A DNA stretch of 64,000 nucleotides, from the NCBI GenBank assembly GCA_041665505.1, contig JBAYIR010000001.1, positions 147,108 through 211,107 of the forward strand. Reading direction: 5' to 3'. The translations under genes were made by a program, and so were the position numbers. The notes beneath the pieces were generated by a model, which was not told the DNA's origin, searched no databases, and saw only the letters and a program-made list of their open reading frames with translations. This document shows, one piece after another, positions 4,252-48,376 of the stretch (positions are counted from its first letter, which is position 1; each line of letters opens with the position of its first letter). The stretch is from Patescibacteria group bacterium (GTDB lineage: Bacteria; Patescibacteriota; Patescibacteriia; UBA1558; GWA2-36-10).

Positions 4252-4280
4252 TTGACAAATTTTTTGTTATATGATATAAT
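4252..4280 (+). promoter_or_regulatory. Sigma-70-type promoter (TTGACA-17-TATAAT) driving the GC-rich cassette 1 ORF
   Basis: TTGACA lies at 4252-4257, followed by a 17-nt AT-rich spacer and TATAAT at 4275-4280. A 10-bp perfect hairpin in the 5' UTR (TGACCAATAC/GTATTGGTCA) lies at 4329-4354. The RBS GGAGGA sits 7 nt upstream of the ATG at 4409. Confidence 0.55.
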
Positions 4281-4408
4281 AATACGTTCACTACTAAGGT
4301 GGGCTAATTGTGTCTTGTGACCAATACGCCTTAGTATTGGTCATTGAAATAGAGTTTAGTCGAAACACACGCAAGAGAGTCACTCGATAGAGAAGAAGGA
4401 GGAAAGTC

Positions 4409-6622
4409 ATGTATTTGGACAACCAGCAAAGGCTGGGAGAGTTCGGACTCTACCTGGGAGACACCTGGGGATGGGTCTGGCCGGAAATGATCCTGCCCAT
4501 CTTCGCCGTGGCAATTCTGCTCGGCTGGTGGATGGCAGCACTTCGTGTCAAACGTTTGGGAACGGCTGCCTTCAAAGGACAGGGCGGCTTCTGGAACTTC
4601 GCCATCAAGCGGGCGGCTGGTTTGGTCGCCACTGGACTGTTCGGGCTCATCATCCTGGTCAGTGTCCAGTACTTCGGTCAGGAGCGAGTAGCCAAGCACC
4701 ACGACCTGTGGGCTTGGCAAATCAAGGAATTCATCCCCATGCTCAAGGGTGTGGCAGTCGGGGAAGACTCGACTGTTGTCGCGCTTGAAGCCGAGAAGTA
4801 CTACGTCGTTGGCGATGATGAAGAAATTCCCGAGGGCTACTCGCGTGAGTCCTGGGAGAAGTTCATCAATCGGCCGGTTGGTGCCATTGAAGGCACCTTG
4901 GGTCGGCATACCCAGCCTAGGACCTTTGGCAAGGAAAGGGTATATAGGGGTGGTCACCCGCGTTGGTGGGTGGATCCTATCTCCTTGTTTATCCTGCTGT
5001 TGCTCTTGACACAAGTCTTGGGCAAAAGTGGTAAGATTTGGCTCTTCGGTCGCTACATTTGGGGCGTGGTGGTGGTACTGTATCTGATACTGTACCTGAC
5101 ACTCCGTCCTTGGCTCCAAGGTCAGGTGGATTTTTGGAGCCTCACACTGGTCATAAATTTGCTCCAGCTGTGTGTGGTGGCTTTGGTACTGCCTCTGGCC
5201 TGCAGGAAGTTGGTGTGGATGTTGAAGAACAGGCAATGCGTGGTTACTATTGATCCGATCGAAAAGCAGCCCATGGCCTACACTGGGCAGATGTTTTTCG
5301 GTCTGGGGATTGGTACATTTATTGCCTTCACCAGCATTTTCTTCGTGCTCTTGCTTTTTCCTGCAGACATCATCAAGTTGGGTGGGTCCATCCGGACGCG
5401 CTTGATTTACTTGGTGCTGCAGGTGCTTGCCACTGGAGCTTTCTTCTTCTTGACCCAACTGGAGCGGGTTAAGCAGAAGATTATGATTGAGATTCCTCGG
5501 CGTGTCAGTTTGATCGCTGGTGGGATCTTGAGCATCCTGGCTTTTGCCTTGCCGGGTGTCTGGCTTTTCCTGTTCTTGCTGATTTTGATGATCTTGGTTT
5601 ATGAGCTTGGTGCTAATTATCAAGTGCCGATTGCTCATAAGCTGGTTATTGAAATCTTCAAGAAGGATCGCTATGATCCCTGGATTTTCCTCTGGCAGAA
5701 AGAGACCAACCGTATGGCCTCAACATATGGTTGTCTCAAGACTATGTTGAGGGAGGGGCTTCACATTACGCTGGTGGCGATGTGGGCTCCGTGGCTTAGG
5801 GTGTTTGTTTTCGTCGAGGAAATCCTCGAAGTTAACAAATACAAAGTGGATGAGCCTTTGGCTACCAGCAGTGTGCCCTGTAAATTCGAAACCGACGACC
5901 AAGGTCGTTTGATTGAGATTCTGACGGATGGGGAGGGTGTTTCTACTGGGCCGCCAGTGGAGTTTTTCGTGAGTCAACGCTTTGGGATGTACCACGATCC
6001 ACGGCTCTTCCTGCGTCTGTCGCTGGAAGATAGGCGTGATCCAACGGGGCTTCTGAAGCGCGATACTCAGAACCACTTGGCTCGTCTGACGCGCAAGCTT
6101 GGTATGAACCAAGCACTGATCGGAAGTTACTACACTTCCGAGGCCCATTTCTTCTTCTTTGACGGTCCGGGCACAGAGCCTATGACTTTTCCGCAGCTCC
6201 TGCGTCGTGGCTCTATGCGAGTTGTTGGTTTCTTGGAGATGAGCACAGAGCTTTCCGACGGCAATCCTCCTCCCGGCCTTGAGGCTTCCCAGATCGAGCT
6301 GGAGAAAGCTAAGATCGATCTGGAGACCGAGCGGTTGAGAGCGGAGATGGCTGTCATCAAGAAGAAGGCTGAAGGCACTGGCGCCAAGGAGATGATCGAA
6401 GAGATCGAAAAGGCTCTTCAGAAGGGAGCCTCTGCTTTGGCGGCGTCTGAATGGCTCCAGGTCATGGAGCTGGTCAAGAGTGATGCCGTCAAGTGGTTAC
6501 TGCCTTCTGGTCTGATTGACCGCTTGGGCGGTCTGGGTGATGTAGCTCGGCGGCTTGGGGTTAGTGCTCCGACGACGCCAGCTGCTCCGACCTCACCGCC
6601 GGCTCCGCCGGCTGGCGACTAA
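4409..6622 (+). CDS. Hypothetical polytopic membrane protein (about 9 TM helices) with a C-terminal coiled-coil soluble domain and a Pro/Ala-rich tail, in high-GC cassette 1
   Basis: The 737-aa ORF is about 55-60% GC by eye against a roughly 30% background. It has a strong RBS, and a hairpin plus T-run terminator lies downstream. Multiple hydrophobic helices are present, for example ILPIFAVAILLGWWMAAL and SLIAGGILSILAFALPGVWLFLFLLILMILV. The C-terminal region reads ...IELEKAKIDLETERLRAEMAVIKKKAEG... No family is recognised. Confidence 0.6.
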   Translation: MYLDNQQRLGEFGLYLGDTWGWVWPEMILPIFAVAILLGWWMAALRVKRLGTAAFKGQGGFWNFAIKRAAGLVATGLFGLIILVSVQYFGQERVAKHHDLWAWQIKEFIPMLKGVAVGEDSTVVALEAEKYYVVGDDEEIPEGYSRESWEKFINRPVGAIEGTLGRHTQPRTFGKERVYRGGHPRWWVDPISLFILLLLLTQVLGKSGKIWLFGRYIWGVVVVLYLILYLTLRPWLQGQVDFWSLTLVINLLQLCVVALVLPLACRKLVWMLKNRQCVVTIDPIEKQPMAYTGQMFFGLGIGTFIAFTSIFFVLLLFPADIIKLGGSIRTRLIYLVLQVLATGAFFFLTQLERVKQKIMIEIPRRVSLIAGGILSILAFALPGVWLFLFLLILMILVYELGANYQVPIAHKLVIEIFKKDRYDPWIFLWQKETNRMASTYGCLKTMLREGLHITLVAMWAPWLRVFVFVEEILEVNKYKVDEPLATSSVPCKFETDDQGRLIEILTDGEGVSTGPPVEFFVSQRFGMYHDPRLFLRLSLEDRRDPTGLLKRDTQNHLARLTRKLGMNQALIGSYYTSEAHFFFFDGPGTEPMTFPQLLRRGSMRVVGFLEMSTELSDGNPPPGLEASQIELEKAKIDLETERLRAEMAVIKKKAEGTGAKEMIEEIEKALQKGASALAASEWLQVMELVKSDAVKWLLPSGLIDRLGGLGDVARRLGVSAPTTPAAPTSPPAPPAGD

Positions 6623-6652
6623 ACATACTTCCCTCTCAGAGGGGAAACAACA

Positions 6653-6688
6653 CCGGGACGTTTGAAAGGGCGTCCCGGTTTTCTATTT
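6653..6688 (+). terminator. Intrinsic terminator of cassette 1
   Basis: An 8-bp stem CCGGGACG/CGTCCCGG with a 10-nt loop is followed by TTTTCTATTT. A small hairpin CCCTC-tca-GAGGG precedes it. Confidence 0.7.
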
Positions 6689-6711
6689 GCTAAAATCTGG
6701 ACTTATATTTA

Positions 6712-6745
6712 TCAATCAAAAAATCCGCTAGTTTAGCGGATTTAA
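6712..6745 (-). terminator. Intrinsic terminator of dus (overlaps its stop codon)
   Basis: On the minus strand, the hairpin AATCCGCTA-aac-TAGCGGATT is followed by TTTTTTG. The stop TAG lies inside the stem. Confidence 0.6.
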
Positions 6746-7714
6746 TATTTTCTCTACATCATCAGGATTGCTTACAGTCACTAGTTGTTTTCTTAGTTCA
6801 CTAGCATCAGGTCGGCCTTTGACATAAAATAATAAATGTTTTCTCATTTCTATAAAAGCTCTTTCATTTTTTGATTGCCATAGCAAGTGAGCGTGCCTGA
6901 TAGCTGTTTCTTTGATAGTCGGCCAAGTGACTTCTTGGTAGCTGCCTGTGTCAATATAGTCTCTTATCTGCTTAAAGAGCCAAGGACGACCGTATAGAGC
7001 CCGAGATAGGGCTATACCATCAGCTTGAGTATATTTAAGGTCTGTTACTACTGACTCTATAGTCTGAAAAGAGCCATTGATAAGATATATAGACTGGGGG
7101 AAAGTGGTTTTAAATTTTTGACCAGCCTCACGCAACATTTCCAAATCCACTGGACCAGTAAAAGGTACTTCGTAGCTTCGGCCATGCAGTATCAAAGCAG
7201 CTAGTGGCAAATCTGATAGAGCATCTATAAAATCAAAAATAGTAATGTCACCAGAGTCAGGCTGACCTTGAGTTTTTCGCAGGCTAATTCTAGTTTTGAC
7301 TGATACAGGTATATCTACAGCTTCTATAGTTTTGGTGACAATGTCTCTGACAGTTTTCATATCTCTCAGTAGACAAATACCCCCACCGTGGCCAGCTACT
7401 TTTTTGGCGGGGCAACCAAAATTTATATCAATACCAGCTACGCCAGTTTTGGCGACAATTTTAGCGGCCTGAGGGTAGAGATCTGCTTGTTTGCCAAATA
7501 TTTGGACTACTACTGGTTGTTCACTGGCTTGATACTCTAGCATCTGTATAGTTTTAGAACTAGCATGGCAAAGAGCATCCACCGAGACAAACTCAGTGTG
7601 GACTATGTCAGCTCCCCAAGACTTACATATTTGACGCCAAGCGCTATCAGTAATACCAGCCATAGGCGTCATAGATAGTATGGGTTTTTTTAGATTTTGC
7701 CAAAAGTTTTCCAT
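6728..7714 (-). CDS. dus: tRNA-dihydrouridine synthase (Dus family)
   Basis: MTPMAGITDSAWRQICKSWGADIVHTEFVSVDAL and the following FMN-binding TIM-barrel motifs are typical of DusB-like enzymes. Confidence 0.85.
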   Translation of the reverse strand: MENFWQNLKKPILSMTPMAGITDSAWRQICKSWGADIVHTEFVSVDALCHASSKTIQMLEYQASEQPVVVQIFGKQADLYPQAAKIVAKTGVAGIDINFGCPAKKVAGHGGGICLLRDMKTVRDIVTKTIEAVDIPVSVKTRISLRKTQGQPDSGDITIFDFIDALSDLPLAALILHGRSYEVPFTGPVDLEMLREAGQKFKTTFPQSIYLINGSFQTIESVVTDLKYTQADGIALSRALYGRPWLFKQIRDYIDTGSYQEVTWPTIKETAIRHAHLLWQSKNERAFIEMRKHLLFYVKGRPDASELRKQLVTVSNPDDVEKILNPLN

Positions 7715-13975: not shown

Positions 13976-14033
13976 TAATTATTTTATAATCAACTATTTA
14001 TTAGCTTTTGAGATATAATAGTAGATTTTTTTG

Positions 14034-14062
14034 TTGACAAAAAATTTCATAAACTATAAAGT
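14034..14062 (+). promoter_or_regulatory. Promoter of cassette 2 unit a (TTGACA ... TATAAA)
   Basis: TTGACA at 14034-14039 is followed 15-17 nt later by TATAAA/TAAAGT. The RBS GGAGGA lies ahead of the ATG at 14129. Confidence 0.45.
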
Positions 14063-14128
14063 ATTTTAGCGTCCCTAGGCTCTTGATTCCTTCCCGCGTG
14101 TGACTCTCACTGAACTGGAGGACTTAGC

Positions 14129-14596
14129 ATGAGCAACATCGTAGGTAGTCCCTTGTTGCAGCGCATTACTGGCTGCTCAACCGACATTGCCACCGCCGCT
14201 CAGCAGGCGGTGGAGAGCCTAATGAAGCATCTTCAAGTTGGCACTTTGGTGCCTGGAAGCTGGAAGCTCTACTGGGCGCCGGAGTACTACAAGGACCCCA
14301 AACTTGAGTACGCTAGTGTCTTTAAGGTAGAGATCATTCTGACCATTCAGGCTCAGGCGGGTAGCCTCCCGCCACAGGACTCGCGGCAGTGGTTCGTAAG
14401 CGAGATCATCGCCTCTGATGATCGTAGCGACAGAGCCATGATGGCCGCCGTGCAGCAGGCTACTGCTGTGATGGTCGAGCACGGCCTCAACGAGAATGAG
14501 TGTCAGAGTCTCATTCTCTGCTACACCAAGGACAACAAGGTCTACTGCTCCTTCTGGCTGTTCTACTACGCCGAGCAGGAAGTGGACTGTCACTGA
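14129..14596 (+). CDS. Hypothetical 155-aa protein (high-GC cassette 2)
   Basis: The ORF is GC-rich and has a GGAGGA RBS with a 7-nt spacer. It is followed by the terminator GGAGGCAGCAC-tgcg-GTGCTGCCTCC. No family is recognised. The antisense ORF 14219-14593 is judged spurious. Confidence 0.5.
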   Translation: MSNIVGSPLLQRITGCSTDIATAAQQAVESLMKHLQVGTLVPGSWKLYWAPEYYKDPKLEYASVFKVEIILTIQAQAGSLPPQDSRQWFVSEIIASDDRSDRAMMAAVQQATAVMVEHGLNENECQSLILCYTKDNKVYCSFWLFYYAEQEVDCH

Positions 14597-14623
14597 GTTT
14601 TGATCCCTCAGCGGATCGTTTTA

Positions 14624-14658
14624 GGAGGCAGCACTGCGGTGCTGCCTCCTGCCTTTTA
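14624..14658 (+). terminator. Intrinsic terminator of cassette 2 unit a
   Basis: An 11-bp stem with a 4-nt loop is followed by TGCCTTTTA. Confidence 0.65.
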
Positions 14659-14693
14659 CTTAATTTTAATTATAGTATTTTGTGTTTATTTAG

Positions 14694-14721
14694 TTGACAA
14701 AAAACTTATTTTAGGTTAATT
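14694..14721 (+). promoter_or_regulatory. Promoter of cassette 2 unit b (TTGACA-16-TTAATT)
   Basis: TTGACA lies at 14694-14699. The -10 element is weak. Confidence 0.35.
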
Positions 14722-14778
14722 TCTTTGGGCTTAGTGTTATTTCACAGTTGACTAGGACTCCAACGAAAGGATTCGAGC

Positions 14779-15093
14779 ATGTCCAAGCGTATGGTGGTTG
14801 TTCAACACAGCCATGTTATTGGAGTGTGTTCTGGTACCGTCAGAGTTGAGCGTCTGGAAAATGCTCAGACTGGCGTCCGTTTCAGGTTGAAGATTGGCAG
14901 TGAGCGTTCTGTCAGTAGCCCTGACATCGCAGAGCTGACCAGCTGTCTCAAAGACCAGGTCTTTGCTCGCCGTGTGAGCCAGGCTTTTACTATGGAGGCG
15001 CCGACTATTTCTTCTCTTCGACCAATGCTTCCCAAGTTCAAGGTGAAGTTCTTAGCCACGAAGGCTCGCCGTGACGAGGATCTGTTCGATTAA
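14779..15093 (+). CDS. Hypothetical 104-aa protein (high-GC cassette 2)
   Basis: The ORF is GC-rich with an AGGA RBS. No family is recognised. Confidence 0.45.
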   Translation: MSKRMVVVQHSHVIGVCSGTVRVERLENAQTGVRFRLKIGSERSVSSPDIAELTSCLKDQVFARRVSQAFTMEAPTISSLRPMLPKFKVKFLATKARRDEDLFD

Positions 15094-15115
15094 ATGTAAA
15101 AAATGGAGGAACTCC

Positions 15116-15343
15116 GTGCCTAAAATCAGCCTGGCCAAGGCTGATCCTATCCGTCAGCAGATACTATTGGTGGTTGAGTCTTGGCCCAAGGCAGAAGGCG
15201 AATGCAAGCCGAGCGCGGTTTGCTGTTTGGTCGCTGAAACTGGTGCGGCTAGCTATGGCGATTGCGCCCAGCAAGTGGCTATCCTTTTGCAACAAGGAGA
15301 ACTGAAAATAGAGCCTCAGCAAAGAGGGCTCTACGTTCCGTGA
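15116..15343 (+). CDS. Hypothetical 75-aa protein (high-GC cassette 2), GTG start
   Basis: A perfect GGAGGA lies 5 nt upstream of the GTG at 15116. The ORF-track start at 15071 would overlap the preceding ORF. The terminator follows immediately. Confidence 0.4.
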   Translation: MPKISLAKADPIRQQILLVVESWPKAEGECKPSAVCCLVAETGAASYGDCAQQVAILLQQGELKIEPQQRGLYVP

Positions 15344-15345
15344 GA

Positions 15346-15380
15346 GGGGCTTCGGGAAACCGAAGCCCCTTAACTTTTTT
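15346..15380 (+). terminator. Intrinsic terminator of cassette 2 unit b
   Basis: GGGGCTTCGG-gaaa-CCGAAGCCCC is followed by TTAACTTTTTT. Confidence 0.75.
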
Positions 15381-16662
15381 ATTGAATAGTTAAATAATAA
15401 TTTTCTTCGGGACTCAGGACAAATAGTCTTTCACCTTTTTTATCAAAGAGATAACTTTTTTTACGAGGGTTGTTGATAAGTTCTATATTATTTCTTTTGT
15501 CTCTACCATCTAATTCAGTCAAAGTAGTGCTATCATTTATTTCTGAGACAAAATAACTACCATTGGGATGCCAAAATACATCAGCTACTATATTAGAGGA
15601 TCTATCAATTAGATTTTGCCAGTCATTTTTATAATTAAAAAGTATTATTTCATGGCCATTGGTCATCAGTAGTCTTTCATCATGCAACTCTACTACCGTA
15701 ATTGGTATAGTAATTAAATCCTTAAAAATATTTTTGATATATAATTTTGAACCCAAAGTAAAGATAAGATAATTATCTTCCACTAGTAATATATCTAAAT
15801 TACCTAAATTGACATTATTTATTACTTGTTTTGTCTCTAGATTACTTTTATTCAGTTGTTCAACAAAATTATTTTTATTCAGAGTATATTGAATGATTAG
15901 CCAATTATCTTTGATAGCAAAATCATTTATAGGGTTTTTAATATTCAAAAGTTCATCAGCTTCACCAGTTGCTTGGTGTTTGTGTCTGTAGAGTTTACTA
16001 TCTTTAAGATAAAGCAAAGTATCGGTGCCATTTTCCCAAACAATTTTTTGTAGACCGATGATGGGTAAAGGGTCTAGTTGTTTTTGATCAATATTAAAGC
16101 TAAAATATTTTGTATCAGCTTGAACTATTATTTGTTGGTTATCTATAGACCAATCAATTAATTCATATTTTTGGTCTAGGGTAGTTATTTCAAAAACCTT
16201 GGCTTGTTCAATATCAGTAATTAATAAGCGTTTCTCATTATCTATAAAAGCATATTTATTTTTATCTTTATTGAGCAAAAATTTTTCACTGCCAGCACTT
16301 AAAATTGTTTTTGGTCTATTGTCTAAAAATAATACAATATCTTCGGCAAAAGTAGTTTCTCCAGAATAAATATCCAGTTCTTTGTTCCAAGTTACATAAT
16401 TATCTTTACTGACTTTTAACTTATGCGTGCCGGGGGGTATATTTACTACTTGAGTGGGAGTTTTGTTTTTATTTTTTTTGTCATTTACAAAAATTTCTGC
16501 ACCACGAGGGAAAGATTTGATATAAAAAGCGCCATTTTTTTTGAGATTACCAGTTTTAAAATCATACCTATAGCCCAAAGAATAGGTCGTTAGTAACGGT
16601 GCTAAAATAAAAAATAGTATAAAAAATATTGAAACAGTAATTTTTCTAAAGATTTTTTCCAT
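15379..16662 (-). CDS. PEGA-domain/beta-propeller-like envelope protein
   Basis: An N-terminal TM helix is present. A PEGA-like segment (FYIKSFPRGAEIFVNDKK...GTHKLKVSKDNYVTWNKELDIYSGETT) is followed by a repeat-rich C-terminal region. Confidence 0.55.
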   Translation of the reverse strand: MEKIFRKITVSIFFILFFILAPLLTTYSLGYRYDFKTGNLKKNGAFYIKSFPRGAEIFVNDKKNKNKTPTQVVNIPPGTHKLKVSKDNYVTWNKELDIYSGETTFAEDIVLFLDNRPKTILSAGSEKFLLNKDKNKYAFIDNEKRLLITDIEQAKVFEITTLDQKYELIDWSIDNQQIIVQADTKYFSFNIDQKQLDPLPIIGLQKIVWENGTDTLLYLKDSKLYRHKHQATGEADELLNIKNPINDFAIKDNWLIIQYTLNKNNFVEQLNKSNLETKQVINNVNLGNLDILLVEDNYLIFTLGSKLYIKNIFKDLITIPITVVELHDERLLMTNGHEIILFNYKNDWQNLIDRSSNIVADVFWHPNGSYFVSEINDSTTLTELDGRDKRNNIELINNPRKKSYLFDKKGERLFVLSPEENYYLTIQ

Positions 16663-33058: not shown

Positions 33059-34654
33059 ATGAAAGCAATAAATGTCTCAAGAGTATCAACCGAAGAACAA
33101 AAAGAAGCTGGTAATTCTTTGCCTGCTCAGATTGAACGTGTAGACGCTTATTGTAAGAGAAAAGATTTTGAAGTTATTAAATCTTTTAGTTTTGATGAAA
33201 GTGCTTATAAAGATAAGCGAGATGAGTTTGATAAACTACTTGAGTATGTTCAAAAAATAGCCACAAAGGAAAAGGTGGCTGTTTGTTTTGATAAAGTAGA
33301 CAGACTTTCAAGAAGTGTATTTGATAAGAGAGTTGCCGTATTTTATCAAATGGCTTTAGAAGATAAAATAGAGTTGCATTTTGTTTCAGACAATCAAATC
33401 ATAAACGGAAAATTATCGGCAACAGAAAAAAGTGGATTTGGTATGAGCCTTGTAATGGCTAGTTACTATTCAAATGCAATAAGTGATAATGTTAAGAGAG
33501 CATTTGAGCAAAAAAGACGTAATGGAGAATGGACAGGGCAAGTACGCTTAGGGTATTTAAACGTTAGTTTAGACCAAGCAAAAAGATTACGCAAAGACAT
33601 TATCATAGACCCAGACAAAGGGCATCTTATACAGAAAATGTTTGAACTCTATGCTACTGACCAATACTCTTTGAAAACCTTGCAAATTAAAATTAGTGAG
33701 CTTGGTTTGAGAACTCGCTATGGAAATAAACTTTCATTAAGTGGCATAGAAAAAATCATTAAGGACAGTTTTTATTGTGGTATTGCTATGTCAACAAAGT
33801 ATGGTTCTTATGCCCATAAATATCCTCGTTTAATATCAAGAGAACTCTTTGATAAGTGCCAACAGATACGCACCAAACGCAATAAAATGCCCTATAAGGC
33901 ACACTCTAAGGACTTTATGCTAAAAGGCCTGTTAAGATGTAATAATTGTGGTTGTTTAATGAGCCCTCAAAAACAGACTAAGAAAAGTGGACTTGAATTT
34001 ATCTATTATACTTGTACGAATGCCAAAGGTATATGCAAAAAAATATATATACCAGAAAAAGACCTTTTAAAACCAATCTATGATGTTTTAGAAAGATTTG
34101 AGAGTATAAGTGAGGAAGTACAGAATGGTCTTGTTGAGGAATTACGCAAATGTACCGAAATAGAAGTAGTATTTCATAAGGCACAAATAAATCGTATTCG
34201 AACAGATTATGATAATTTAAAAGCGAAGCAAAATAGACTTCTTGATGCATTTTTAGACCAGAGTATTACTAAGGACATCTATGACAAGAAACATCAAGAG
34301 TATCAAGACCAAATACAAACTTTAGAAATTGAAATGTCTGAACATCAGAAAGCAGATTTTGATTACAAAACTACTGTCGCTACAGTCATTTCCGTAGCAC
34401 GCAGAGCAAAAACTATATTTGAAAATAGTTCTGAAGTTGCTGGAAAAAGAACATTTTTGAGTTACATACTTCAGAACCCGATTGTAACAGGTAGAATACT
34501 TACCTTTGACCTCAAAAAACCCTTTGATTTAGTGCTAAGTCTTGCTGATAACCAAAGAAAAAAGACTATCGTTTCTGATAGTCATCTTTCTTGGCTCGGG
34601 GACAGGGATTCGAACCCCGGTTGGCTGGACCAAAACCAGCTGTCCTACCACTAG
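33059..34654 (+). CDS. Large serine recombinase (integrase)
   Basis: The N-terminal resolvase domain carries the catalytic Ser (NVSRVSTEEQ). A recombinase domain, a zinc ribbon (CNNCGC...YYTC) and a coiled coil follow. The last roughly 63 nt overlap the tRNA-Gln on the opposite strand. Confidence 0.85.
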   Translation: MKAINVSRVSTEEQKEAGNSLPAQIERVDAYCKRKDFEVIKSFSFDESAYKDKRDEFDKLLEYVQKIATKEKVAVCFDKVDRLSRSVFDKRVAVFYQMALEDKIELHFVSDNQIINGKLSATEKSGFGMSLVMASYYSNAISDNVKRAFEQKRRNGEWTGQVRLGYLNVSLDQAKRLRKDIIIDPDKGHLIQKMFELYATDQYSLKTLQIKISELGLRTRYGNKLSLSGIEKIIKDSFYCGIAMSTKYGSYAHKYPRLISRELFDKCQQIRTKRNKMPYKAHSKDFMLKGLLRCNNCGCLMSPQKQTKKSGLEFIYYTCTNAKGICKKIYIPEKDLLKPIYDVLERFESISEEVQNGLVEELRKCTEIEVVFHKAQINRIRTDYDNLKAKQNRLLDAFLDQSITKDIYDKKHQEYQDQIQTLEIEMSEHQKADFDYKTTVATVISVARRAKTIFENSSEVAGKRTFLSYILQNPIVTGRILTFDLKKPFDLVLSLADNQRKKTIVSDSHLSWLGDRDSNPGWLDQNQLSYH

Positions 34655-34665
34655 ACGATCCCCGA
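34592..34665 (-). tRNA. tRNA-Gln (anticodon UUG)
   Basis: The minus-strand read is TCGGGGATCGTCTAGTGGTAGGACAGCTGGTTTTGGTCCAGCCAACCGGGGTTCGAATCCCTGTCCCCGAGCCA. It has a 7-bp acceptor stem (U1-A72), an anticodon stem GCTGG/CCAGC with loop TTTTGGT, a T-loop TTCGAAT, discriminator G and an encoded CCA. Confidence 0.8.
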
Positions 34666-34795: not shown

Positions 34796-35029
34796 CTAGT
34801 CCAGCCAGCTATCGCCGGTCGGATCGCAGCAGTTGTCTTCCATCATGATCTGCCAGATGCAGATCCAACCGAAGCGGTTGAAGCCGAACTCGAGTGCCAG
34901 GTCGCATCCCCAGGGCATGAGCCCACCGGCGTGGGCAGTCCGGGGCACCGTGGCGATACCCAGAGCCGTGATCAGGGTAATGGTCGCGAGGACCCTCCCG
35001 ATCTTCTTTTTCAGGCTTTTCGGAAACAT
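34796..35029 (-). CDS. Small secreted Cys/Trp-rich peptide precursor (77 aa; predicted 43-aa mature peptide)
   Basis: A Sec-type signal peptide (MFPKSLKKKIGRVLATITLITALGIATVPRTAHA|GG) is present. The mature part GGLMPWGCDLALEFGFNRFGWICIWQIMMEDNCCDPTGDSWLD contains 4 Cys. An RBS-like GAGGG lies 5 nt upstream. The gene sits in high-GC cassette 3. Confidence 0.45.
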   Translation of the reverse strand: MFPKSLKKKIGRVLATITLITALGIATVPRTAHAGGLMPWGCDLALEFGFNRFGWICIWQIMMEDNCCDPTGDSWLD

Positions 35030-35110
35030 GGTTTCCCTCTCTGTGGGGTGTGGTGTTGTGGCTGTTTACCACAACAAGTTAGCCGGAGTCTTATCCTCCT
35101 CTCTGGTAAA

Positions 35111-35776
35111 CTATTTGAAGTCTACCTTGACACGGTGATCTTCCACCACCAGTTTGTCTGTGGTGGTTACCCTCAAAACCTCCATGCCGAAGTAGGAGCT
35201 TGGTAGCCTCACCAGAACCACGTTAGGCAGGTCGGGTGAAGCACCTTTGTTGAACTTGTTGTCCATTCTGACTGGACCATCGCGGGTGTCTTTCCAATCA
35301 TCGGACGGACGATGTTTCTTGATGCAGATGATGCCGATATCCGGTACCTGGATTTCGCTGCCATCACCACCTCTGATGGTAAAGATCAATGCTCCAACCT
35401 CGTTGAAGAGTAGGTCAACTTGGTCAGGAATATACACACCAAGCCTGTAGACTATGACCTGCTCGCGTGCCAATGTGGCACTCAATTTGAGACTGGGTAT
35501 CTCATCGACCATGATTTCAAGCTGCTCTTTGATAAACTCTACCCGTTCTTCTCGTTGTAGTCTACGACCTCTTTGCCTTTCTTCTATTTGGATGGCCGTG
35601 CCAAGTTGAGGTTTCAGGTTATCGATGGGCCTGCTCCAGCTTTCATTGTAGCCAGAGAAGATCAGGACACCATCAGGAGTCTGGTTGATAGGAACGAAGT
35701 TGGCCTTGGCTTGTGCAACTGTGCTAGCGAGTAGCATCAGGCCGAGACACGCGAGAAACATGAATGTGTTTCGCAT
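35111..35776 (-). CDS. Hypothetical secreted protein (221 aa, Sec signal)
   Basis: The signal peptide MRNTFMFLACLGLMLLASTVAQA is present. The ORF is GC-rich. Its start overlaps the upstream stop (TAATG), so it is translationally coupled to the lipoprotein gene. Confidence 0.55.
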   Translation of the reverse strand: MRNTFMFLACLGLMLLASTVAQAKANFVPINQTPDGVLIFSGYNESWSRPIDNLKPQLGTAIQIEERQRGRRLQREERVEFIKEQLEIMVDEIPSLKLSATLAREQVIVYRLGVYIPDQVDLLFNEVGALIFTIRGGDGSEIQVPDIGIICIKKHRPSDDWKDTRDGPVRMDNKFNKGASPDLPNVVLVRLPSSYFGMEVLRVTTTDKLVVEDHRVKVDFK

Positions 35777-36057
35777 TAGCGATTACCTCTCTGCGGGTTA
35801 GGGTTCTTCGCATCCAGATTCTTGGTGTTGAAGACCGAGTTCTGGACTCTTGCTTCTGCATCAGCAATAGCTTCGCAACGCCAGGTGCCGTCTTTGTTGA
35901 CACACCGGTAGCTCTTACCATCTACAACGAAGACCTTGGTACTGTCAGGGATGACAGTGGTGTCACGAAACTGTGGGTGGTAGCTGTAACCACAACCAGT
36001 GATTAAGACCAGCATCAGGATGACGCCGATCAATTTGACGACGATTTTTTCAAACAT
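35776..36057 (-). CDS. Hypothetical lipoprotein (93 aa)
   Basis: A lipobox LITGC follows the hydrophobic N-terminus. A strong RBS AAGGAGG lies 6 nt upstream of the ATG. The gene is first in the operon. Confidence 0.55.
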   Translation of the reverse strand: MFEKIVVKLIGVILMLVLITGCGYSYHPQFRDTTVIPDSTKVFVVDGKSYRCVNKDGTWRCEAIADAEARVQNSVFNTKNLDAKNPNPQRGNR

Positions 36058-36139
36058 GCGGCGCCTCCTTAGTGGCGTTTTGCTTGGCGTTTTGCTCTTA
36101 CTGCGATTCGTGTTGTTAGAGAACTGTTATGCTAATTTC

Positions 36140-36190
36140 ATTATACATAAAATAACACTTAATTCAAGTATATTTCTTTATTTTTGTCAA
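36140..36190 (-). promoter_or_regulatory. Promoter region for the lipoprotein operon (minus strand): TTGACA, then TTGAAT-16-TATAAT
   Basis: On the minus strand, TTGACAAAAATAAAGAAATATACTTGAATTAAGTGTTATTTTATGTATAAT is present. A roughly 75-nt leader contains the tandem 11-bp repeat GCAAAACGCCA x2. Confidence 0.45.
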
Positions 36191-36202
36191 TAGATAAGTT
36201 AT

Positions 36203-36285
36203 GAAAATAAAGGTGGGGCTCGTCACACAACTGGGGGGAGTGTTGAAGTGACGAGCCCCGGTCTGCCCTCTAGGGGCAGTTTTTT
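36203..36285. terminator. Bidirectional intrinsic terminator between the two cassette-3 transcription units
   Basis: A 12-bp stem GGGGCTCGTCAC...GTGACGAGCCCC (36215-36259) is followed on the minus strand by ACCTTTATTTTC. On the plus strand, CTGCCC-tctag-GGGCAG is followed by TTTTTT (36263-36285). Confidence 0.6.
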
Positions 36286-36334
36286 GGTAGCTCTATACAG
36301 CTACGCAAGAGAAGACAATAAGACTAGTGTCTGG

Positions 36335-36400
36335 CTACTTCCTGAGCCACCAGAACAGATCCAGGAGCGCCAGCCCCATGAAGATCACTTCGTAATGCAT
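36335..36400 (-). CDS. Putative 21-aa hydrophobic micro-protein (MHYEVIFMGLALLDLFWWLRK)
   Basis: A perfect SD AAGGAGGTG lies 5 nt upstream of the ATG. One predicted TM helix. It sits between the receiver-like gene and the terminator. It is not in the ORF track because it is under 60 aa. Confidence 0.3.
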   Translation of the reverse strand: MHYEVIFMGLALLDLFWWLRK

Positions 36401-36449
36401 TATGCCACCTCCTTTCATACAATGGGAGTCTCACCCCCCAGTTGTATGA

Positions 36450-36854
36450 TCAGTGGTTGGCCATGCTCAACTGGTGAACGTAGTCAACCAGACGACCGAC
36501 ATTGAGCGGTTTGGGCATACAGAAGACCCCATACTCGCTCATCAGCCGTTCGATCTTGGTGTTGGGGTAGCGGTGGCTCATAGCCAGGGTGGTGATGTGC
36601 ACGCCAGCAGAGGTGAGAATCTCCATGAACCTCTCACTGTCGACATCCAGACACTCGATGATGATCACGTCAGGCAGAGGATCCCAGTTCAGCATCTTGC
36701 GGATCACCTTCGTGGTGTCGAGTTGAGCTCTGTAGATCTGGCCGTCAACCTGCTCGATGTTGGTCAGGACTTCATGTCCTTCGGACTCCAGGCCAAAGGC
36801 CATGGTCATGGCCGTATCCGGGTCGCTGTCGAAGATGAAAACGCGCTTCTTCAT
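36450..36854 (-). CDS. Stand-alone CheY-like receiver (REC) domain protein, atypical
   Basis: The N-terminal acidic pair is VFIFDSDPD. A KP motif (FCMPKPL) and a Thr (HITTLA) occupy the expected positions. The phospho-acceptor position appears to be Glu in DVIIIE (alignment by eye). An RBS AGGAG is present. The plus-strand ORF 36453-36872 is judged an antisense artefact. Confidence 0.4.
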   Translation of the reverse strand: MKKRVFIFDSDPDTAMTMAFGLESEGHEVLTNIEQVDGQIYRAQLDTTKVIRKMLNWDPLPDVIIIECLDVDSERFMEILTSAGVHITTLAMSHRYPNTKIERLMSEYGVFCMPKPLNVGRLVDYVHQLSMANH

Positions 36855-36875
36855 GGTTTTGCTCCTAGCTGAAGT

Positions 36876-36943
36876 GTCGGTTACGCTACTGGCTCAGGAT
36901 TGTCCAAGCGTCCAAATACAGACAATCCGTCTTCGCCTCACTC
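36876..36943 (+). repeat. Cassette-3 direct repeat copy A (about 67 bp, internal 7-bp dyad GATTGTC-N16-GACAATC)
   Basis: GTCGGTTACGCTACTGGCTCAGGATTGTCCAAGCGTCCAAATACAGACAATCCGTCTTCGCCTCACT. It lies 22 nt 5' of the REC gene start when read on the minus strand. Confidence 0.7.
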
Positions 36944-36974
36944 AGTCTCTCCTGTGTCGCCGATGAAGCTGATT

Positions 36975-37145
36975 TCAGTCAGACAGGCCTTTCTGTAGGG
37001 CTTTGGCCAGTTCATCTTCGTTCAGGTGACGCGTCGCAAACCTGACCTGCCGATACAATACCTTGGTATCGTAGTCCAGGTTTTCGTTGAGCCGGGCAAT
37101 GTGCTCTTGCACAATCTTGATATTCCGCCGGTGTTGGGGGCTCAT
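36975..37145 (-). CDS. Hypothetical 56-aa protein (MSPQHRRNIKIVQEHIARLNENLDYDTKVLYRQVRFATRHLNEDELAKALQKGLSD)
   Basis: An RBS AGGGAG lies 11 nt upstream of the ATG. The ORF-track start at 37178 is rejected. It is preceded by repeat copy B and an extended -10 (TGTTATACT). Confidence 0.35.
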   Translation of the reverse strand: MSPQHRRNIKIVQEHIARLNENLDYDTKVLYRQVRFATRHLNEDELAKALQKGLSD

Positions 37146-37223
37146 AGTATTCACACTCCCTGTTTTTGGGTAACACAAAACACCTCAAAGAGGCGTTTTG
37201 GCTAAGTATAACACAGCAAAAGT

Positions 37224-37290: not shown

Positions 37291-37387
37291 GCTTCTCTTA
37301 TTTTGGTAAAGAACTTAGTTTACAAAAAAATACCCTTTCAGGCATTTCTGTAAATTAAGCTCTCAATATTGAGATTTATTACGCAAT

Positions 37388-37454
37388 GCCGGTTACGCTA
37401 CTAGCTCCAGATTGTCCAAGCGTCCAGATACAGACAATCCTTCAAAGCCTCATT
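37388..37454 (+). repeat. Cassette-3 direct repeat copy C
   Basis: It is identical to copy B over the first 54 nt (GCCGGTTACGC...GACAATCCTTC), and the tail then diverges. It lies just downstream (on the minus strand) of the ZIP gene stop and a TTGACA motif at 37505-37510. Confidence 0.7.
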
Positions 37455-37514
37455 GAATGATATTTATTGTAAATTATTAATACCCTACCACATAATTTTT
37501 ATTTTGTCAAGACC

Positions 37515-44582: not shown

Positions 44583-46295
44583 GTGATTTTATTTTCTATG
44601 TCATATATTTGGAGATTACCTCAAAAGCCTAGTCAGGAATTTATAGATAAATTTCCAGAATTACATCCGATTGTAGTTCAATTATTGTTTAATAGAAATC
44701 TTAAAACTCAAAATGAGATTGATGAATTTTTGAGTCCTGATTATAGTAAAGACGTCCATGATCCTCATCTGTTTAAGGATATGGAGAAGGCTTGCCAGAG
44801 GATATATAAAGCTATTAGAGAACAAGAACTTATTACTGTCTATGGAGACTATGATGCTGATGGAGTTAGCTCATCGGTTATACTTCGCTCTGTGCTCAAA
44901 GATTTAGGAGCTCAGGTGGAAGTATATTTGCCTCATCGGGAAAAAGAAGGCTATGGCCTCAATAAAAAAGCGGTTGAAGAATTGGCGGGTAAAACTAAAG
45001 TGATTATTACTTGCGATTGTGGTATTAGTAATTTGGAGGAGGTAGATTTGGCCAATCAAAAAGGCATAGATGTTATTATTACTGATCATCATACTATTCC
45101 CGATACTTTGCCCAAGGCTTTAGCTATCATCCATCCGCAAGTTAAAGGAGAAATGTATCCTTTTAAATATTTGGCTGGTGGTGGAGTAGCTTTTAAATTA
45201 GCTCAAGCTTTGCTGTCTCATGTTAAAAATGATTTATCTGATAAAGAAAAAGAAGGTAGTGAAAAATGGCTCTTAGATATGGTAGCCTTATCCACGGTGG
45301 CTGATATGGTGCCACTACTAGGAGAAAATAGGACACTACTCAAATATGGTATGCTAGTTTTGAAAAAAACTCGCCGTTTGGGCATGAAAAAATTAATAGA
45401 GGTAGCTAATTTAGAAATTGATAAAATTGATACTAGAGCTATTGGTTTTTCTTTGGCACCTAGAGTTAATGCGGCTGGACGAATGGATCATGCTAATTTA
45501 GCATATTATTTAATGATTGAAGAAGATGAGGCTAAGGCTACAAAACTAGCTCAAGAGCTTAATCAATCAAATTTAGATAGGCAAAAATTGACTGAGCGTA
45601 TTGTACGTGAGGCCAAAGCGCAGACTATAGATGAAAATGATCCTTTACTAGTTTTTTATGACCCCAGCTGGTCGTCTGGTTTGACAGGCTTGGTAGCTGG
45701 CAGATTAGCTCGTGATTATGCTCGACCAGTGTTTGTGATGACCAAGGTGGAAAACAACATTGTTGGTTCTGGTCGCAGTATTCCAGAGTTTAATATTATT
45801 GAGGCGTTGCAAGCTCATGAAGATTTGTTGATAAAATATGGTGGACATCCTCAGGCTTGTGGTTTTTCTATGGATCCAGAGAAAAGAGAAACTTTTGTTC
45901 AGATTATGAAAGAGTTGGCGACTCAAAAATTGCAAGGCGTAGAATTTCAAAGTAAATTAGATATAGAATTAATGATAGATTTTGAAGATATATCATGGGA
46001 TTTGGTGGATTTATAGGAAAGATTCCGTCCTTATGGTCAGATGAATCCAGAACCATTATTTATATCTAGTGGTTTAGCAATTACTAGTATTCGTCAGGTG
46101 GGAAATGACGGCAAACATTTAAAATTGGAAGTTTCCAAAGGCAATAAGAAAAAAGGAGCTATTGCTTTTGGTCTGGGTAATGTGAAATTAGAATTGGGGG
46201 ATAAAATTGATATCGTGTATAATTTGAGTATTAATCAATGGAATGGTAATCGGGAAATTCAATTAATGATTAAAGATATAAAAAAGAATGGCTAG
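44583..46295 (+). pseudogene. recJ: recJ (ssDNA-specific 5'-3' exonuclease) interrupted by a single in-frame TAG at 46014-46016
   Basis: DHH motifs are present (VYGDYDADGVSS and ITDHHTIP), followed by DHHA1. After the TAG, the same frame continues with RPYGQMNPEPLF (the RecJ FGxGNPxPxF motif) and an OB-like tail that ends at 46295. Confidence 0.7.
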
Positions 46296-46683
46296 ACTTT
46301 TTACAGATGGTGGAGCTAGGGGTAACCCAGGCCCAGCCGCTATTGGTGGTGTGATATATGATGGGAAAAATAAAATAGCCGATTTTTCTCAATATATTGG
46401 TCAGACGACCAATAATCAAGCAGAATATCAAGCTTTGCTGAAAGGCTTAGATTTAGCTTTATCAAATAATATACAAAATTTGGAATGTTTTTTGGATAGT
46501 GAGTTGGTGGTTAAACAAATGAATAAAGAATATAAAGTTAAAGACAAAGAATTAGCTAAAATATTTGTTAAAGTTTATAATCTTAGTTTGAAATTTAAAA
46601 AAATTAGTTTTAGTCATATCCGAAGAGAATATAACAAAGAAGCAGATGCTTTGGTCAATAAAGCTTTAGACGCTAGACTTTAG
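46288..46683 (+). CDS. rnhA: Ribonuclease HI
   Basis: MARLFTDGGARGNPGPAAIGGVIYDG... The catalytic DEDD residues are in place. Confidence 0.85.
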   Translation: MARLFTDGGARGNPGPAAIGGVIYDGKNKIADFSQYIGQTTNNQAEYQALLKGLDLALSNNIQNLECFLDSELVVKQMNKEYKVKDKELAKIFVKVYNLSLKFKKISFSHIRREYNKEADALVNKALDARL

Positions 46684-46716
46684 TTATTTATATCAATTAT
46701 ATTAACAGGTTTCTGA

Positions 46717-46745
46717 TTGACAGAAAGCTGTTTTTTATTTATAGT
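46717..46745 (+). promoter_or_regulatory. Promoter of high-GC cassette 4 (TTGACA-17-TATAGT)
   Basis: TTGACA lies at 46717-46722 and TATAGT at 46740-46745. A hairpin in the 5' UTR (GAGAGAC-tgag-GTCTCTC) lies at 46782-46799. Confidence 0.55.
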
Positions 46746-46823
46746 AATCAAATTCGGATTTTTGTCCGGCCTTGTTCACTGGAGAGACTGAGGTCTCTCA
46801 AAACCATAGAAAGGAAGCCTAGG

Positions 46824-47042
46824 ATGGAATTTGGTCTCAAAGGTACTGGTTGGTATTTGATCTGCGATCAAGTACCGAAAGATGGCGGAGAGGGGGCTAG
46901 CAATCTCTTCTATCGCTTGAGTGTTCCGGTCGGGAGTAGTCAGTTGCGCTATGAGAAAGTAGCGCAACACGAAGCTCGTCGGATTTTGACCACACAAGCG
47001 GACCTGATCAAGGGTTATGTTGCCTGGATCACCACTCTGTAA
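46824..47042 (+). CDS. Hypothetical 72-aa protein (high-GC cassette 4)
   Basis: An RBS AAAGGAAG is present. The ORF is GC-rich. No family is recognised. Confidence 0.45.
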   Translation: MEFGLKGTGWYLICDQVPKDGGEGASNLFYRLSVPVGSSQLRYEKVAQHEARRILTTQADLIKGYVAWITTL

Positions 47043-47059
47043 CGCAGGAGGCTTGCTCT

Positions 47060-47260
47060 ATGGAACAGCTCTGGAAGGGCGCTTACATTGGTGCTAAGTG
47101 CCCCTATGAGGATTGTTCTGGTTTTGTGGGAGCTCATGATCCTGGTGGCTCTGAGCCGCATCAGCTTCGCTGTAGCGCGGAGCCCGAACACATGACCGAG
47201 ATCTCGGCCGACCGCTACTCCCAGCTTCAGCTGGAAGCTCGGTCTAGGGCCGAGGCCTAA
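47060..47260 (+). CDS. Hypothetical 66-aa protein with a Cys/His cluster (high-GC cassette 4)
   Basis: An RBS AGGAGG lies 8 nt upstream. The protein carries CPYEDC...H...C...H, which may bind metal. Confidence 0.45.
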   Translation: MEQLWKGAYIGAKCPYEDCSGFVGAHDPGGSEPHQLRCSAEPEHMTEISADRYSQLQLEARSRAEA

Positions 47261-47290
47261 GTCGTCCCATCAGGGATAAAGGCATTTTGG

Positions 47291-47330
47291 CCGCCGCCAC
47301 GTCAGACGTGGCGGCGGTTCTTTTATTTTA
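47291..47330 (+). terminator. Intrinsic terminator of cassette 4
   Basis: An 11-bp GC stem CCGCCGCCACG/CGTGGCGGCGG is followed by TTCTTTTATTTT. Confidence 0.8.
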
Positions 47331-47374
47331 CTTATGGGTTGATTTTTAGTCTCAAAAATGGTATTTTATATGTA

Positions 47375-48376
47375 ATGTCACAGGTATATAAGTGGCCTAT
47401 TTATGGTCATAAAAAGCAGTTAGAATTTTTACAAGAAACTATTAGTCAAGACAAATTGGCTAATACTTATTTATTTTATGGTCCAGCTGGTTTGGGTAAG
47501 AAAACAATTGTGGATTATTTTGTTAAAAGTACTTTTTGTCTTGATGATAAAGTCAGACCTTGTGAAAAATGTGAACATTGTCAGATGATAAATCGTGGTA
47601 TTTTTTTGGATATTTATAAGGTCGGACATAGAGAAGATTTGAGCGTGGATAATATTCGGAATTTTTTACATAAAATAGCTATGTCCAATTTTAGCGGGCA
47701 TAGAAAAATAGCTATTGTCTACGGGGCAGAAGCCATTAATCTTTTTAGTGCCAATGCTTTGCTAAAAACTTTAGAAGAGCCGCCAGCTAATACTACTATT
47801 ATATTGATTGCCAATTCGGTTGTTAATTTGCCAGCTACTATTATGTCTAGAGCCCAACTTATAAAGTTTAAGGCTTTAACTAAAACGGATATGACGGCAT
47901 GGTTAAAAAATTATGATTTTTCAGCCAAAGAAAAAGAAACAATAATTAATCTTTCTTTTGGTCGCCCGGGTTTGGCTTTAAAACTGATGTCCGATAATAT
48001 GGAACAATTCAAAAAAAATTCCAATTTTATACTCAAGATGTTAGCGGGTGGAACTTTTTATTATATGCAGGCGCTTGATAAGTGGTTTGCTATATTAAAA
48101 AAAGAATATCCAGCTTATAAATTGTATGAGCTAGGTAATTTAACCAAAGAATATTTAGACTTGCTGGAACTATTTTTGAGAGATATTTTATGGACCAAAC
48201 TTAATCGGTCTATAATTAATGAAATTTACGATCAAGAAATAAAGGAATTAGCTAAAAGTTTAGATAAACAAAGTTTAATAGATAATTTGTTGTCACTAAA
48301 TAAAGCTAAAGAGAAATTAAATTATAATATATCACCACAGTTAGTGTGGGAAAATTTATTTTTAAGTATTAAATAA
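47375..48376 (+). CDS. holB: DNA polymerase III delta' subunit
   Basis: YLFYGPAGLGKKT is the Walker A motif. SANALLKTLEEPP follows. The start is moved to the ATG at 47375. Confidence 0.8.
   Translation: MSQVYKWPIYGHKKQLEFLQETISQDKLANTYLFYGPAGLGKKTIVDYFVKSTFCLDDKVRPCEKCEHCQMINRGIFLDIYKVGHREDLSVDNIRNFLHKIAMSNFSGHRKIAIVYGAEAINLFSANALLKTLEEPPANTTIILIANSVVNLPATIMSRAQLIKFKALTKTDMTAWLKNYDFSAKEKETIINLSFGRPGLALKLMSDNMEQFKKNSNFILKMLAGGTFYYMQALDKWFAILKKEYPAYKLYELGNLTKEYLDLLELFLRDILWTKLNRSIINEIYDQEIKELAKSLDKQSLIDNLLSLNKAKEKLNYNISPQLVWENLFLSIK

Follow-up and report, generated by a model that had tools for sequence, protein, structure and literature searches.

Phage morons have been described as autonomous promoter-gene-terminator units inserted between conserved genes (PMC4378225), and haloarchaeal CPxCG-type Brz and the Haloferax zinc-finger micro-proteins are known as small, one-domain zinc-finger proteins, with Brz encoded just upstream of the gene under its control (PMC2253796, PMC6562870). 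Herein, we report a ~600-base, GC-rich (i.e., rich in guanine plus cytosine), self-contained unit designated cassette 4, which occupies the rnhA-holB spacer of an ultra-small, Komeilibacteria-like Patescibacterium and has points of likeness to, and of difference from, each of these systems. The unit lies within a 64,000-nucleotide stretch of contig JBAYIR010000001.1 (assembly GCA_041665505.1, positions 147,108 to 211,107 of the forward strand), hereafter the window, which is an AT-rich bacterial chromosome (~31% GC, with GC content at third codon positions [GC3] of 0.18-0.31 in host genes) carrying four sharply bounded GC-rich islands. Cassette 4 is the smallest of the four, as had been proposed in a preliminary description made from the sequence alone. 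Its GC content is 53.5% vs ~31% for the window, and its GC3 is 0.51-0.60 vs 0.19-0.25 in the flanking genes, which match the Pfam families RNase_H and DNA_pol3_delta2; the neighbourhood comprises recJ, rnhA, holB, frr, and proS.

The promoter, the hairpin in the 5' untranslated region, the two open reading frames (ORFs) of 72 and 66 residues, and the terminator that the preliminary description had listed between rnhA and holB were all found where it had placed them, together with a second leader hairpin (hairpin 1 below) that was absent from its listing. The features of the locus are as follows:

46704-46742, + strand: intrinsic terminator of rnhA, with arms at 46704-46715 and 46721-46732, then a T-run
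46717-46745, + strand: sigma-70-type promoter TTGACA-17-TATAGT, with the -35 hexamer at 46717-46722 and the -10 hexamer at 46740-46745
46746-46823, + strand: 5' leader of 78 nucleotides, with two RNAfold hairpins, a box, and a ribosome-binding site (RBS)
46754-46769, + strand: leader hairpin 1 (RNAfold)
46772-46779, + strand: leader box TTGTTCAC, invariant in six of seven units
46782-46799, + strand: leader hairpin 2, GAGAGAC-TGAG-GTCTCTC (RNAfold)
46811-46817, + strand: RBS of ORF1, AAGGAAG
46824-47042, + strand: ORF1, 72 residues, putative new small-protein family
47046-47051, + strand: RBS of ORF2, AGGAGG, 8 nucleotides before the ATG (direct reading)
47060-47260, + strand: ORF2, 66 residues, predicted Cys3-His zinc-ribbon-like domain
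47289-47329, + strand: intrinsic terminator of cassette 4, with the stem-loop at 47289-47319, then TTCTTTTATTTT
47339-47377, + strand: promoter-like block of holB and the holB ATG at 47375, forming the right boundary, outside cassette 4

As in a phage moron, the ORFs of cassette 4 lie between a sigma-70 promoter and a factor-independent terminator of their own, both of which are conserved in relatives; the unit stands between genes that are adjacent in relatives (rnhA and holB 65-100 nucleotides apart), and its base composition is sharply off that of its neighbours. Unlike a moron, cassette 4 resides in a bacterial chromosome between replication genes rather than in a phage or prophage, is without homologues among phage records or IMG/VR contigs, retains its composition contrast over deep divergence, and has its -35 hexamer fused into the terminator of the upstream gene. 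An integron gene cassette was rejected as a candidate, as cassette 4 has its own conserved promoter, its sole 3' inverted repeat is the terminator, and its neighbours are recJ, rnhA, and holB. A transposable element (insertion sequence, miniature inverted-repeat transposable element, or IS200/IS605-derived unit) was likewise rejected, with neither terminal inverted repeats nor a convincing duplication being detected; the hairpins at the two ends of cassette 4 are unrelated in sequence, and each genome fragment seen carries the unit at one site only.

Cassette 4 is not a chimeric product of assembly, since three further independent assemblies carry it at 99.2-100% identity, i.e., Logan SRR6484324 (100%), the 350-kb contig L003 of ENA ERZ27249449 (99.95%), and JGI 3300037810 (99.2%). 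A diverged copy occurs in Logan SRR22387796, and relatives of the locus are labelled Candidatus Komeilibacteria in NCBI. Word-indexed protein searches with ORF1 and ORF2 returned the queries themselves only. An exhaustive phmmer (HMMER) search of 1.84 billion representative proteins, with ORF1 and ORF2 concatenated as the query, returned four matches (P0005, P0006, P0008, and P0009): three relatives of ORF2 (P0005, P0006, and P0008), namely a 66-residue protein (60% identity), a 69-residue protein (50%), and a 141-residue two-domain protein, along with one 67-residue relative of ORF1 (50%). Further ORF2 copies were located in L007, L012, L018, L019, and L020. All homologues directly precede holB, and on each contig that extends as far as rnhA, the homologue is situated between the two genes. 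No homologue of either ORF was found among 50,697 phage records or the IMG/VR contigs, nor was any found among 72,556 plasmids, which were searched with ORF2 only.

Some 20 related loci, gathered from HolB genome and metagenome scans and from HolB cluster members, show the following states of the rnhA-holB spacer:

Empty spacer of 65-100 nucleotides: L004, L011, L013, L014, L015, and L017 (six loci, five distinct lineages)
ORF1 and ORF2: the window, L006, L007, L008, and L019
ORF1, an ORF2 pseudogene with a frameshift, and ORF2: L018
A single 83-residue ORF2-like gene: L020-L023
A single 141-residue tandem-domain gene: L009, L010, and L016
Two complete tandem units (83-residue gene, then 141-residue gene): L012

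The ORF2 domain is thus duplicated, tandem-fused, and pseudogenised, and some lineages can dispense with ORF1: L009/L010/L016 (L009/L016 being represented in more than 20 contigs), L012, and L020-L023 have ORF2-type genes but no ORF1, while no locus was seen with ORF1 by itself. In L012, the repeated unit spans from the TTGACA hexamer to the terminator T-run, so the promoter-to-terminator module is itself the unit of duplication. This tandem arrangement and the six empty spacers indicate that the cassette behaves as a module, upholding the cassette reading of the preliminary description. In a tree of RnhA plus HolB, the empty loci L004, L011, and L013 nest among occupied lineages. They retain, after the rnhA terminator, the sequence TTTATTCACAG that follows the cassette terminator in L009, L012, L018, and L020, and for both reasons they look like secondary losses of the cassette. 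Judged by the lack of TTTATTCACAG, L014, L015, and L017 may be primitively empty.

The regulatory signals are conserved along with the genes. TTGACA-17-TATAGT is matched once in the window, vs 0.07 matches expected by chance, and just two other + strand sites in the window agree with the consensus at 11 or more of its 12 positions. The pattern TTGAC[AC]-17-TATA[AG]T is kept in all seven cassette units examined (from six loci) and also in L019, with L020 having TTGACA-17-TATATT. The -35 hexamer of cassette 4 overlaps the hairpin of the rnhA terminator (inverted repeat I7, 12 nucleotides, 92% complementary), lying in its loop and 3' arm. All occupied loci have the -35 element within this hairpin, with the T-run of the terminator serving as the promoter spacer. 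An equivalent hairpin and T-run follow rnhA in L004, L006, L007, L009, L012, L018, L019, and L020, with TTGACA present in the loop solely where there is a cassette, whereas empty sites keep the hairpin without it. The hexamers of L007 and L012 include the TGA stop codon of rnhA. In L009 (5781-5905) and also L016, ~125 additional nucleotides containing the palindrome TCTCGAGCGAAGTCGAGA separate the rnhA stop codon from the terminator/promoter hairpin; this insert is absent from the other occupied loci.

Within the leader, hairpin 1 begins 2-3 nucleotides from the predicted transcript start, and its stem varies on both sides across lineages (CGGA/UCCG, CUGA/UCAG, CAGA/UCUG), these compensatory changes having been read by eye rather than counted formally. 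Hairpin 2 reads GAGAG/CUCUC in the majority of units, with L020 having GGGA/UCCC. RNAalifold, applied to a MAFFT alignment of the leaders, recovered only 4 pairs of hairpin 2, as hairpin 1 was misaligned. Neither hairpin is essential, given that hairpin 1 is absent from L009 and hairpin 2 from L012b, and the fold energy of the leader alone is unexceptional (z = -0.70). Stem-loops at the 5' terminus stabilise mRNA, and by analogy we infer such a role for hairpin 1. No credible Rfam match was obtained at E <= 10 across positions 46600-47450, covering the leader and the whole unit, and a known riboswitch-controlled unit was rejected on the lack of such a match for the leader. The TGTTCACT box common to the leaders of cassettes 1 and 4 shows no enrichment, occurring twice in the window vs an expected 1.85 times.

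With respect to translation signals, the GGAGG site of the preliminary description stood for ORF2 (AGGAGG), with a purine-rich site at the same position in relatives, and did not for ORF1, for which AAGGAAG contains no literal GGAGG. The two ORFs are 17 nucleotides apart. The unit closes with a 14-bp stem holding 10 G-C pairs, a 3-nucleotide loop, and a T-run (fold z = -6.06 vs shuffles); in five other lineages, homologous 12-14-bp hairpins (z of -6.2 to -7.4) end the cassette, with arms that differ in sequence across lineages and stay mutually complementary. Beyond this boundary, holB is preceded by a TTGATT-17-TGgTATTTT block that is conserved in all occupied and empty loci. The holB ATG (position 47375, a start taken from the L003 gene call) begins 7 nucleotides after the -10 element, a distance which suggests that the holB mRNA may be leaderless.

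The stronger of the two protein signatures belongs to ORF2. In an alignment of ten domain copies, residues G11, C14, P15, C19, G21, C38, H44, and I48 are invariant and D12, L36, and L56 near-invariant, yielding the motif G-D-x-C-P-x(1-5)-C-x-G ... (H-D-P-G-G ... H-Q-L-R)-C-x(4-6)-H ... I-S-x-x-x-Y-x-x-L. The four Cys/His residues conserved in all ten copies fall into two pairs (C14, C19 and C38, H44), as in generic zinc ribbons and fingers. The zinc-binding idea of the preliminary description is thereby retained for these four residues and not for H26 and H34, which are lacking in some copies; the predicted zinc site is therefore likely of Cys3-His type, with a variable C-P-x(1-5)-C-x-G knuckle. 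As judged from this alignment, ORF2 is the founding member of a new zinc-ribbon-like domain of ~55 residues with a predicted C-terminal helix after it. Net charge across the family ranges from -5 to +4, such that a protein partner is weakly favoured over nucleic acid. ORF2 is without annotation in the NCBI metagenome-assembled genome, in which ORF1 (WCV71_01035) and HolB (WCV71_01040) bear consecutive locus tags; ENA gene calls also omit it, and JGI and Logan call it.

No match to ORF1, ORF2, or any family member was obtained in Pfam, NCBIfam, PHROGs, or PADLOC, and profile searches of the PDB with both ORFs returned noise only. The best PDB profile match of ORF2 was a MYT1-type CCHHC finger (2cs8_A) at a non-significant E of 0.28, and none of the 10 ORF2 members matched Pfam zf-C2HC at E <= 10. 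ORF2 shares with the MYT1/NZF finger (PDB 2cs8) a local K-C-P-x-x-G-C-x-G ... H ... H ... C pattern; however, the C-x4-C-x4-H-x7-H-x5-C model of that finger is unmatched, the two middle His residues of ORF2 are not invariant, the invariant final His and predicted C-terminal helix of ORF2 are without counterpart, and MYT1 fingers are eukaryotic DNA-binding repeats. CPxCG proteins resemble ORF2 in scale, as these too are below 70-85 residues and consist of essentially one zinc-binding module (predicted for ORF2), with a first knuckle of C-P-x..C-x-G and a gene in an intergenic-like position beside unrelated genes. For its second pair, ORF2 nonetheless has C-x4-6-H in place of CxxC, its knuckle spacing ranges over 1-5 residues, no sequence model is matched, and the family is bacterial (Patescibacteria) and confined to one locus.

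ORF1, for which the preliminary description had recognised no features, instead belongs to a conserved family. Homologues are present at the same site in L006, L007, L008, L018, and L019, and five aligned sequences share 15 invariant columns, including GWYL and V-x-W-I. On this alignment, ORF1 is a new small-protein family, found only alongside ORF2. A Foldseek search of the PDB with the ORF1 model gave no match. The two ORFs are unrelated to each other (hhalign probability 0.1), and neither has a paralogue in the window.

Selection was gauged by comparing the window with its close relative L019 (HolB 96% identical), for which synonymous divergence (dS) is unsaturated, yielding the following values for dS, nonsynonymous divergence (dN), and their ratio:

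ORF1: dS 0.47, dN 0.075, dN/dS 0.16
ORF2: dS 0.88, dN 0.156, dN/dS 0.18
recJ: dS 0.34, dN 0.011, dN/dS 0.03
rnhA: dS 0.64, dN 0.043, dN/dS 0.07
holB: dS 0.22, dN 0.016, dN/dS 0.08
Next gene downstream: dS 0.39, dN 0.024, dN/dS 0.06

The ratios of 0.16-0.18 mean that both ORFs are protein-coding and under purifying selection, as the preliminary description had required; constraint on both is also significantly weaker than on the genes around them (Fisher p = 6e-5, nonsynonymous excess of the cassette), and they evolve several times as fast. In deeper comparisons, the cassette proteins are 38-57% identical vs ~80% for HolB and RnhA. Signs of exchange accompany this rapid divergence. Between L009 and L012, holB shows 0 differences in 999 nucleotides, the cassette gene a dS of 0.30 with dN/dS of 0.50, and rnhA a dS of 0.49 with dN/dS of 0.02. 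Over the first 40 nucleotides of ORF1, JGI contig L002 departs from the window at 8 positions, giving 4 synonymous codon changes and 3 conservative ones, and is identical thereafter. These two mosaic junctions at the cassette indicate that homologous recombination shuffles the locus.

Taken together, these data are best accommodated by a picture, which we regard as probable, in which cassette 4 is an insulated, accessory, lineage-restricted unit encoding a zinc-stabilised ORF2 product and an optional ORF1 product with a role in a changing interaction; the functional part of this picture, taken by itself, is put forward tentatively and is open to considerable doubt. A consensus promoter built into the rnhA terminator is followed by a short two-hairpin leader, two small genes, and a strong terminator, and the 5'-terminal hairpin, strong promoter, and terminator would together afford a stable, abundant, and insulated mRNA. 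ORF2 would fold around one structural zinc to give a zinc-ribbon-like module with a C-terminal helix and would act by binding another macromolecule, more probably a protein than a nucleic acid, with ORF1 serving as its optional partner or modulator. Presence/absence variation, copy-number change, raised dN/dS, and recombination junctions point to a locus that would serve a changing interaction (with a phage, a host cell, or a competitor) as opposed to housekeeping.

Several findings weigh against this picture. In L019 (3684-3882), the ORF2 frame moves by +1 within a G-run that follows codon 11, which may mean that ORF2 is dispensable there or that it starts elsewhere. The second half of the Cys3-His arrangement (C-x4-6-H) is unusual and corresponds to no known zinc-finger model at a significant level, and the single-sequence AF2 models are poor (predicted local distance difference test [pLDDT] of 52 for ORF2, suggesting three short strands plus a C-terminal helix, and 66 for ORF1, suggesting a beta-beta-beta-alpha order). 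A conflict role is drawn entirely from evolutionary pattern, no defence, toxin, or phage family being matched by the cassette 4 proteins. The distant L008 carries the cassette and the closer L014, L015, and L017 are without it, a pattern to which horizontal spread among relatives may have contributed. The persistent GC-richness of the cassette also falls outside our account. As a separate observation on L019, a TTG start at position 3712, with GGAAGGG upstream, would retain a 56-residue ORF2 with all four putative zinc ligands.

In one alternative, cassette 4 is a recent, foreign, "moron"-like island, acquired from a phage, plasmid, or other bacterium of higher GC content and with a composition not yet adjusted. 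The contrast with the flanks (53.5% GC and GC3 of 0.51-0.60 vs ~31% and ~0.2), the clean presence/absence polymorphism, the promoter-gene-terminator layout of the moron definition (PMC4378225), and the mosaic junctions would all suit such an island. However, the searches detailed above returned no homologue outside this locus, whether among the 1.84 billion representative proteins, the phage and IMG/VR records, or (for ORF2) the plasmids, and neither an integrase nor terminal inverted repeats nor a convincing duplication of the target was found. Moreover, cassettes carrying both ORF1 and ORF2 have a GC3 of 0.46-0.64 in five lineages with mutually saturated synonymous sites, in which flanking genes have a GC3 of 0.16-0.29; the cassettes of these lineages are collinear and share the promoter, leader, and terminator. 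A single recent import is not expected to leave such a pattern, and a neutral import should have decayed, hence a recent foreign origin appears rather unlikely. A structured non-coding RNA, or ORFs that are mere chance open frames, would also fit a GC-rich block, as such islands in AT-rich genomes are often structured RNAs; the whole transcript folds stably (z = -5.46), and only 3 stops interrupt frame +0 of the insert. That stability is due to the terminator and leader hairpins, with the coding region (z of -2.0 to -3.2) no different from the rnhA control (-2.95). Set against dN/dS of 0.16-0.18 at unsaturated dS, frames that are both open in five or six lineages at 38-57% amino acid identity, invariant Cys and His residues, and the lack of an Rfam match, this explanation is highly improbable.

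Two further proposals concern function. ORF2 could be a Brz-like, small zinc-finger regulator of holB or rnhA, for which the constant position of the cassette directly upstream of the conserved holB promoter block and the precedent of one-domain zinc-finger regulators (PMC2253796, PMC6562870) would speak; nevertheless, the six cassette-less loci keep the same promoter block, the charge range of -5 to +4 is atypical of a DNA binder, and the cassette evolves fast while holB is conserved, leaving a regulator of this kind quite unlikely. Two adjacent genes of ~70 residues each, 17 nucleotides apart, predicted to be co-transcribed from their own promoter and patchily distributed, also resemble a type II toxin-antitoxin pair, with the antitoxin upstream and the toxin downstream. 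Yet searches of Pfam, NCBIfam, and PADLOC at E <= 1 matched neither a toxin nor an antitoxin family, the duplications and fusions of the ORF2 domain are atypical for such operons, and the downstream gene persists alone, in abundant lineages, with ORF1 never found by itself. ORF1 is therefore not an essential antitoxin, which rules out a classical pair; we consider toxin-antitoxin function in general very unlikely.

The persistence of GC-richness across saturated lineages argues against import and calls for an explanation of its own. ORF2-only variants are less GC-rich (GC3 of 0.30-0.38). RNA structure was rejected as the cause, as the z-score of the coding region equals that of the rnhA control; no GC-rich donor lineage was found in databases, nor anything relevant on GC-rich islands in the Candidate Phyla Radiation in the literature. 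A candidate cause, proposed on account of the two mosaic junctions at the cassette, is GC-biased gene conversion acting at hot spots of recombination. On a broader and more speculative reading, which we judge unlikely, the four GC-rich modules would constitute a distinct genome compartment of Komeilibacteria-like Patescibacteria, made up of chromosomal "morons" that are swapped between lineages and actively maintained as GC-rich, with cassette 4 encoding a fast-evolving zinc-ribbon inhibitor or effector. Were this so, modules would be exchanged by homologous recombination through conserved flanks, their GC content would be upheld by GC-biased gene conversion or expression-linked selection, and the bifunctional terminator/promoter would be the docking point of cassette 4.

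On direct reading, the other three islands show the layout of promoter, RBS, and GC-rich terminator seen in cassette 4, in line with the shared layout stated in the preliminary description. They and the aptamers within the third are as follows:

~4400-7000: cassette 1
~14000-15400: cassette 2
~34800-37200: cassette 3
37378-37461, - strand: c-di-GMP-II (cyclic diguanosine monophosphate) aptamer, Rfam RF01786
37214-37297, - strand: c-di-GMP-II aptamer, Rfam RF01786
36866-36948, - strand: c-di-GMP-II aptamer, Rfam RF01786

Cassette 1 (4252-6690) has a perfect TTGACA-17-TATAAT promoter and encodes a 737-residue membrane protein without a family match. Its homologue in L005 (1118-4126) is syntenic, GC-rich, and fast-diverging, with 41% protein identity vs 78% for the flanking SdpI-like protein, a persistence of high GC content that parallels cassette 4. 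The promoter and first ~90 nucleotides of the leader are almost identical between the two, and the leader, which has no Rfam match, may be a conserved regulatory RNA. Cassette 2 holds three ORFs of 155, 104, and 90 residues (GC3 of 0.54-0.72), none with a match in four profile libraries, along with a TTGACA promoter and a GGGGCTTCGG/CCGAAGCCCC terminator. In cassette 3, the three aptamers score 65-72 bits, above the gathering score; two in tandem precede a 67-residue ORF (36975-37178) and the third a 134-residue ORF (36450-36854), and the genes downstream encode proteins with signal-peptide-like N-termini. An AT-rich gene for a large serine recombinase (531 residues) adjoins tRNA-Gln (34592-34665, - strand) and cassette 3, and this region (33059-34665) may serve as a hot spot for integration or represent what is left of an integrated element. 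Nearer to cassette 4, recJ contains an in-frame TAG (46014-46016) that reads TTG (Leu) in the 99.95%-identical L003 contig and represents either a nonsense mutation or an assembly base error; relatives encode an uninterrupted RecJ of 564-565 residues.

Ultimately, cassette 4 adds two new families to the large uncharacterised share of Patescibacteria proteomes, one of them with a predicted metal-binding signature that is amenable to testing. The practical importance of this is modest for now. The placement of a promoter inside the terminator of the upstream gene represents a thrifty use of intergenic space, and an explanation for the persistence of GC-rich coding islands in a 31% GC genome, beyond saturation of synonymous sites, would inform ideas on GC-biased gene conversion, or on selection for base composition, among bacteria. 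The accessory genes of a very small genome are here arranged as insulated promoter-to-terminator modules at fixed hot spots, and these modules vary by presence/absence, duplication, fusion, and decay among close relatives.

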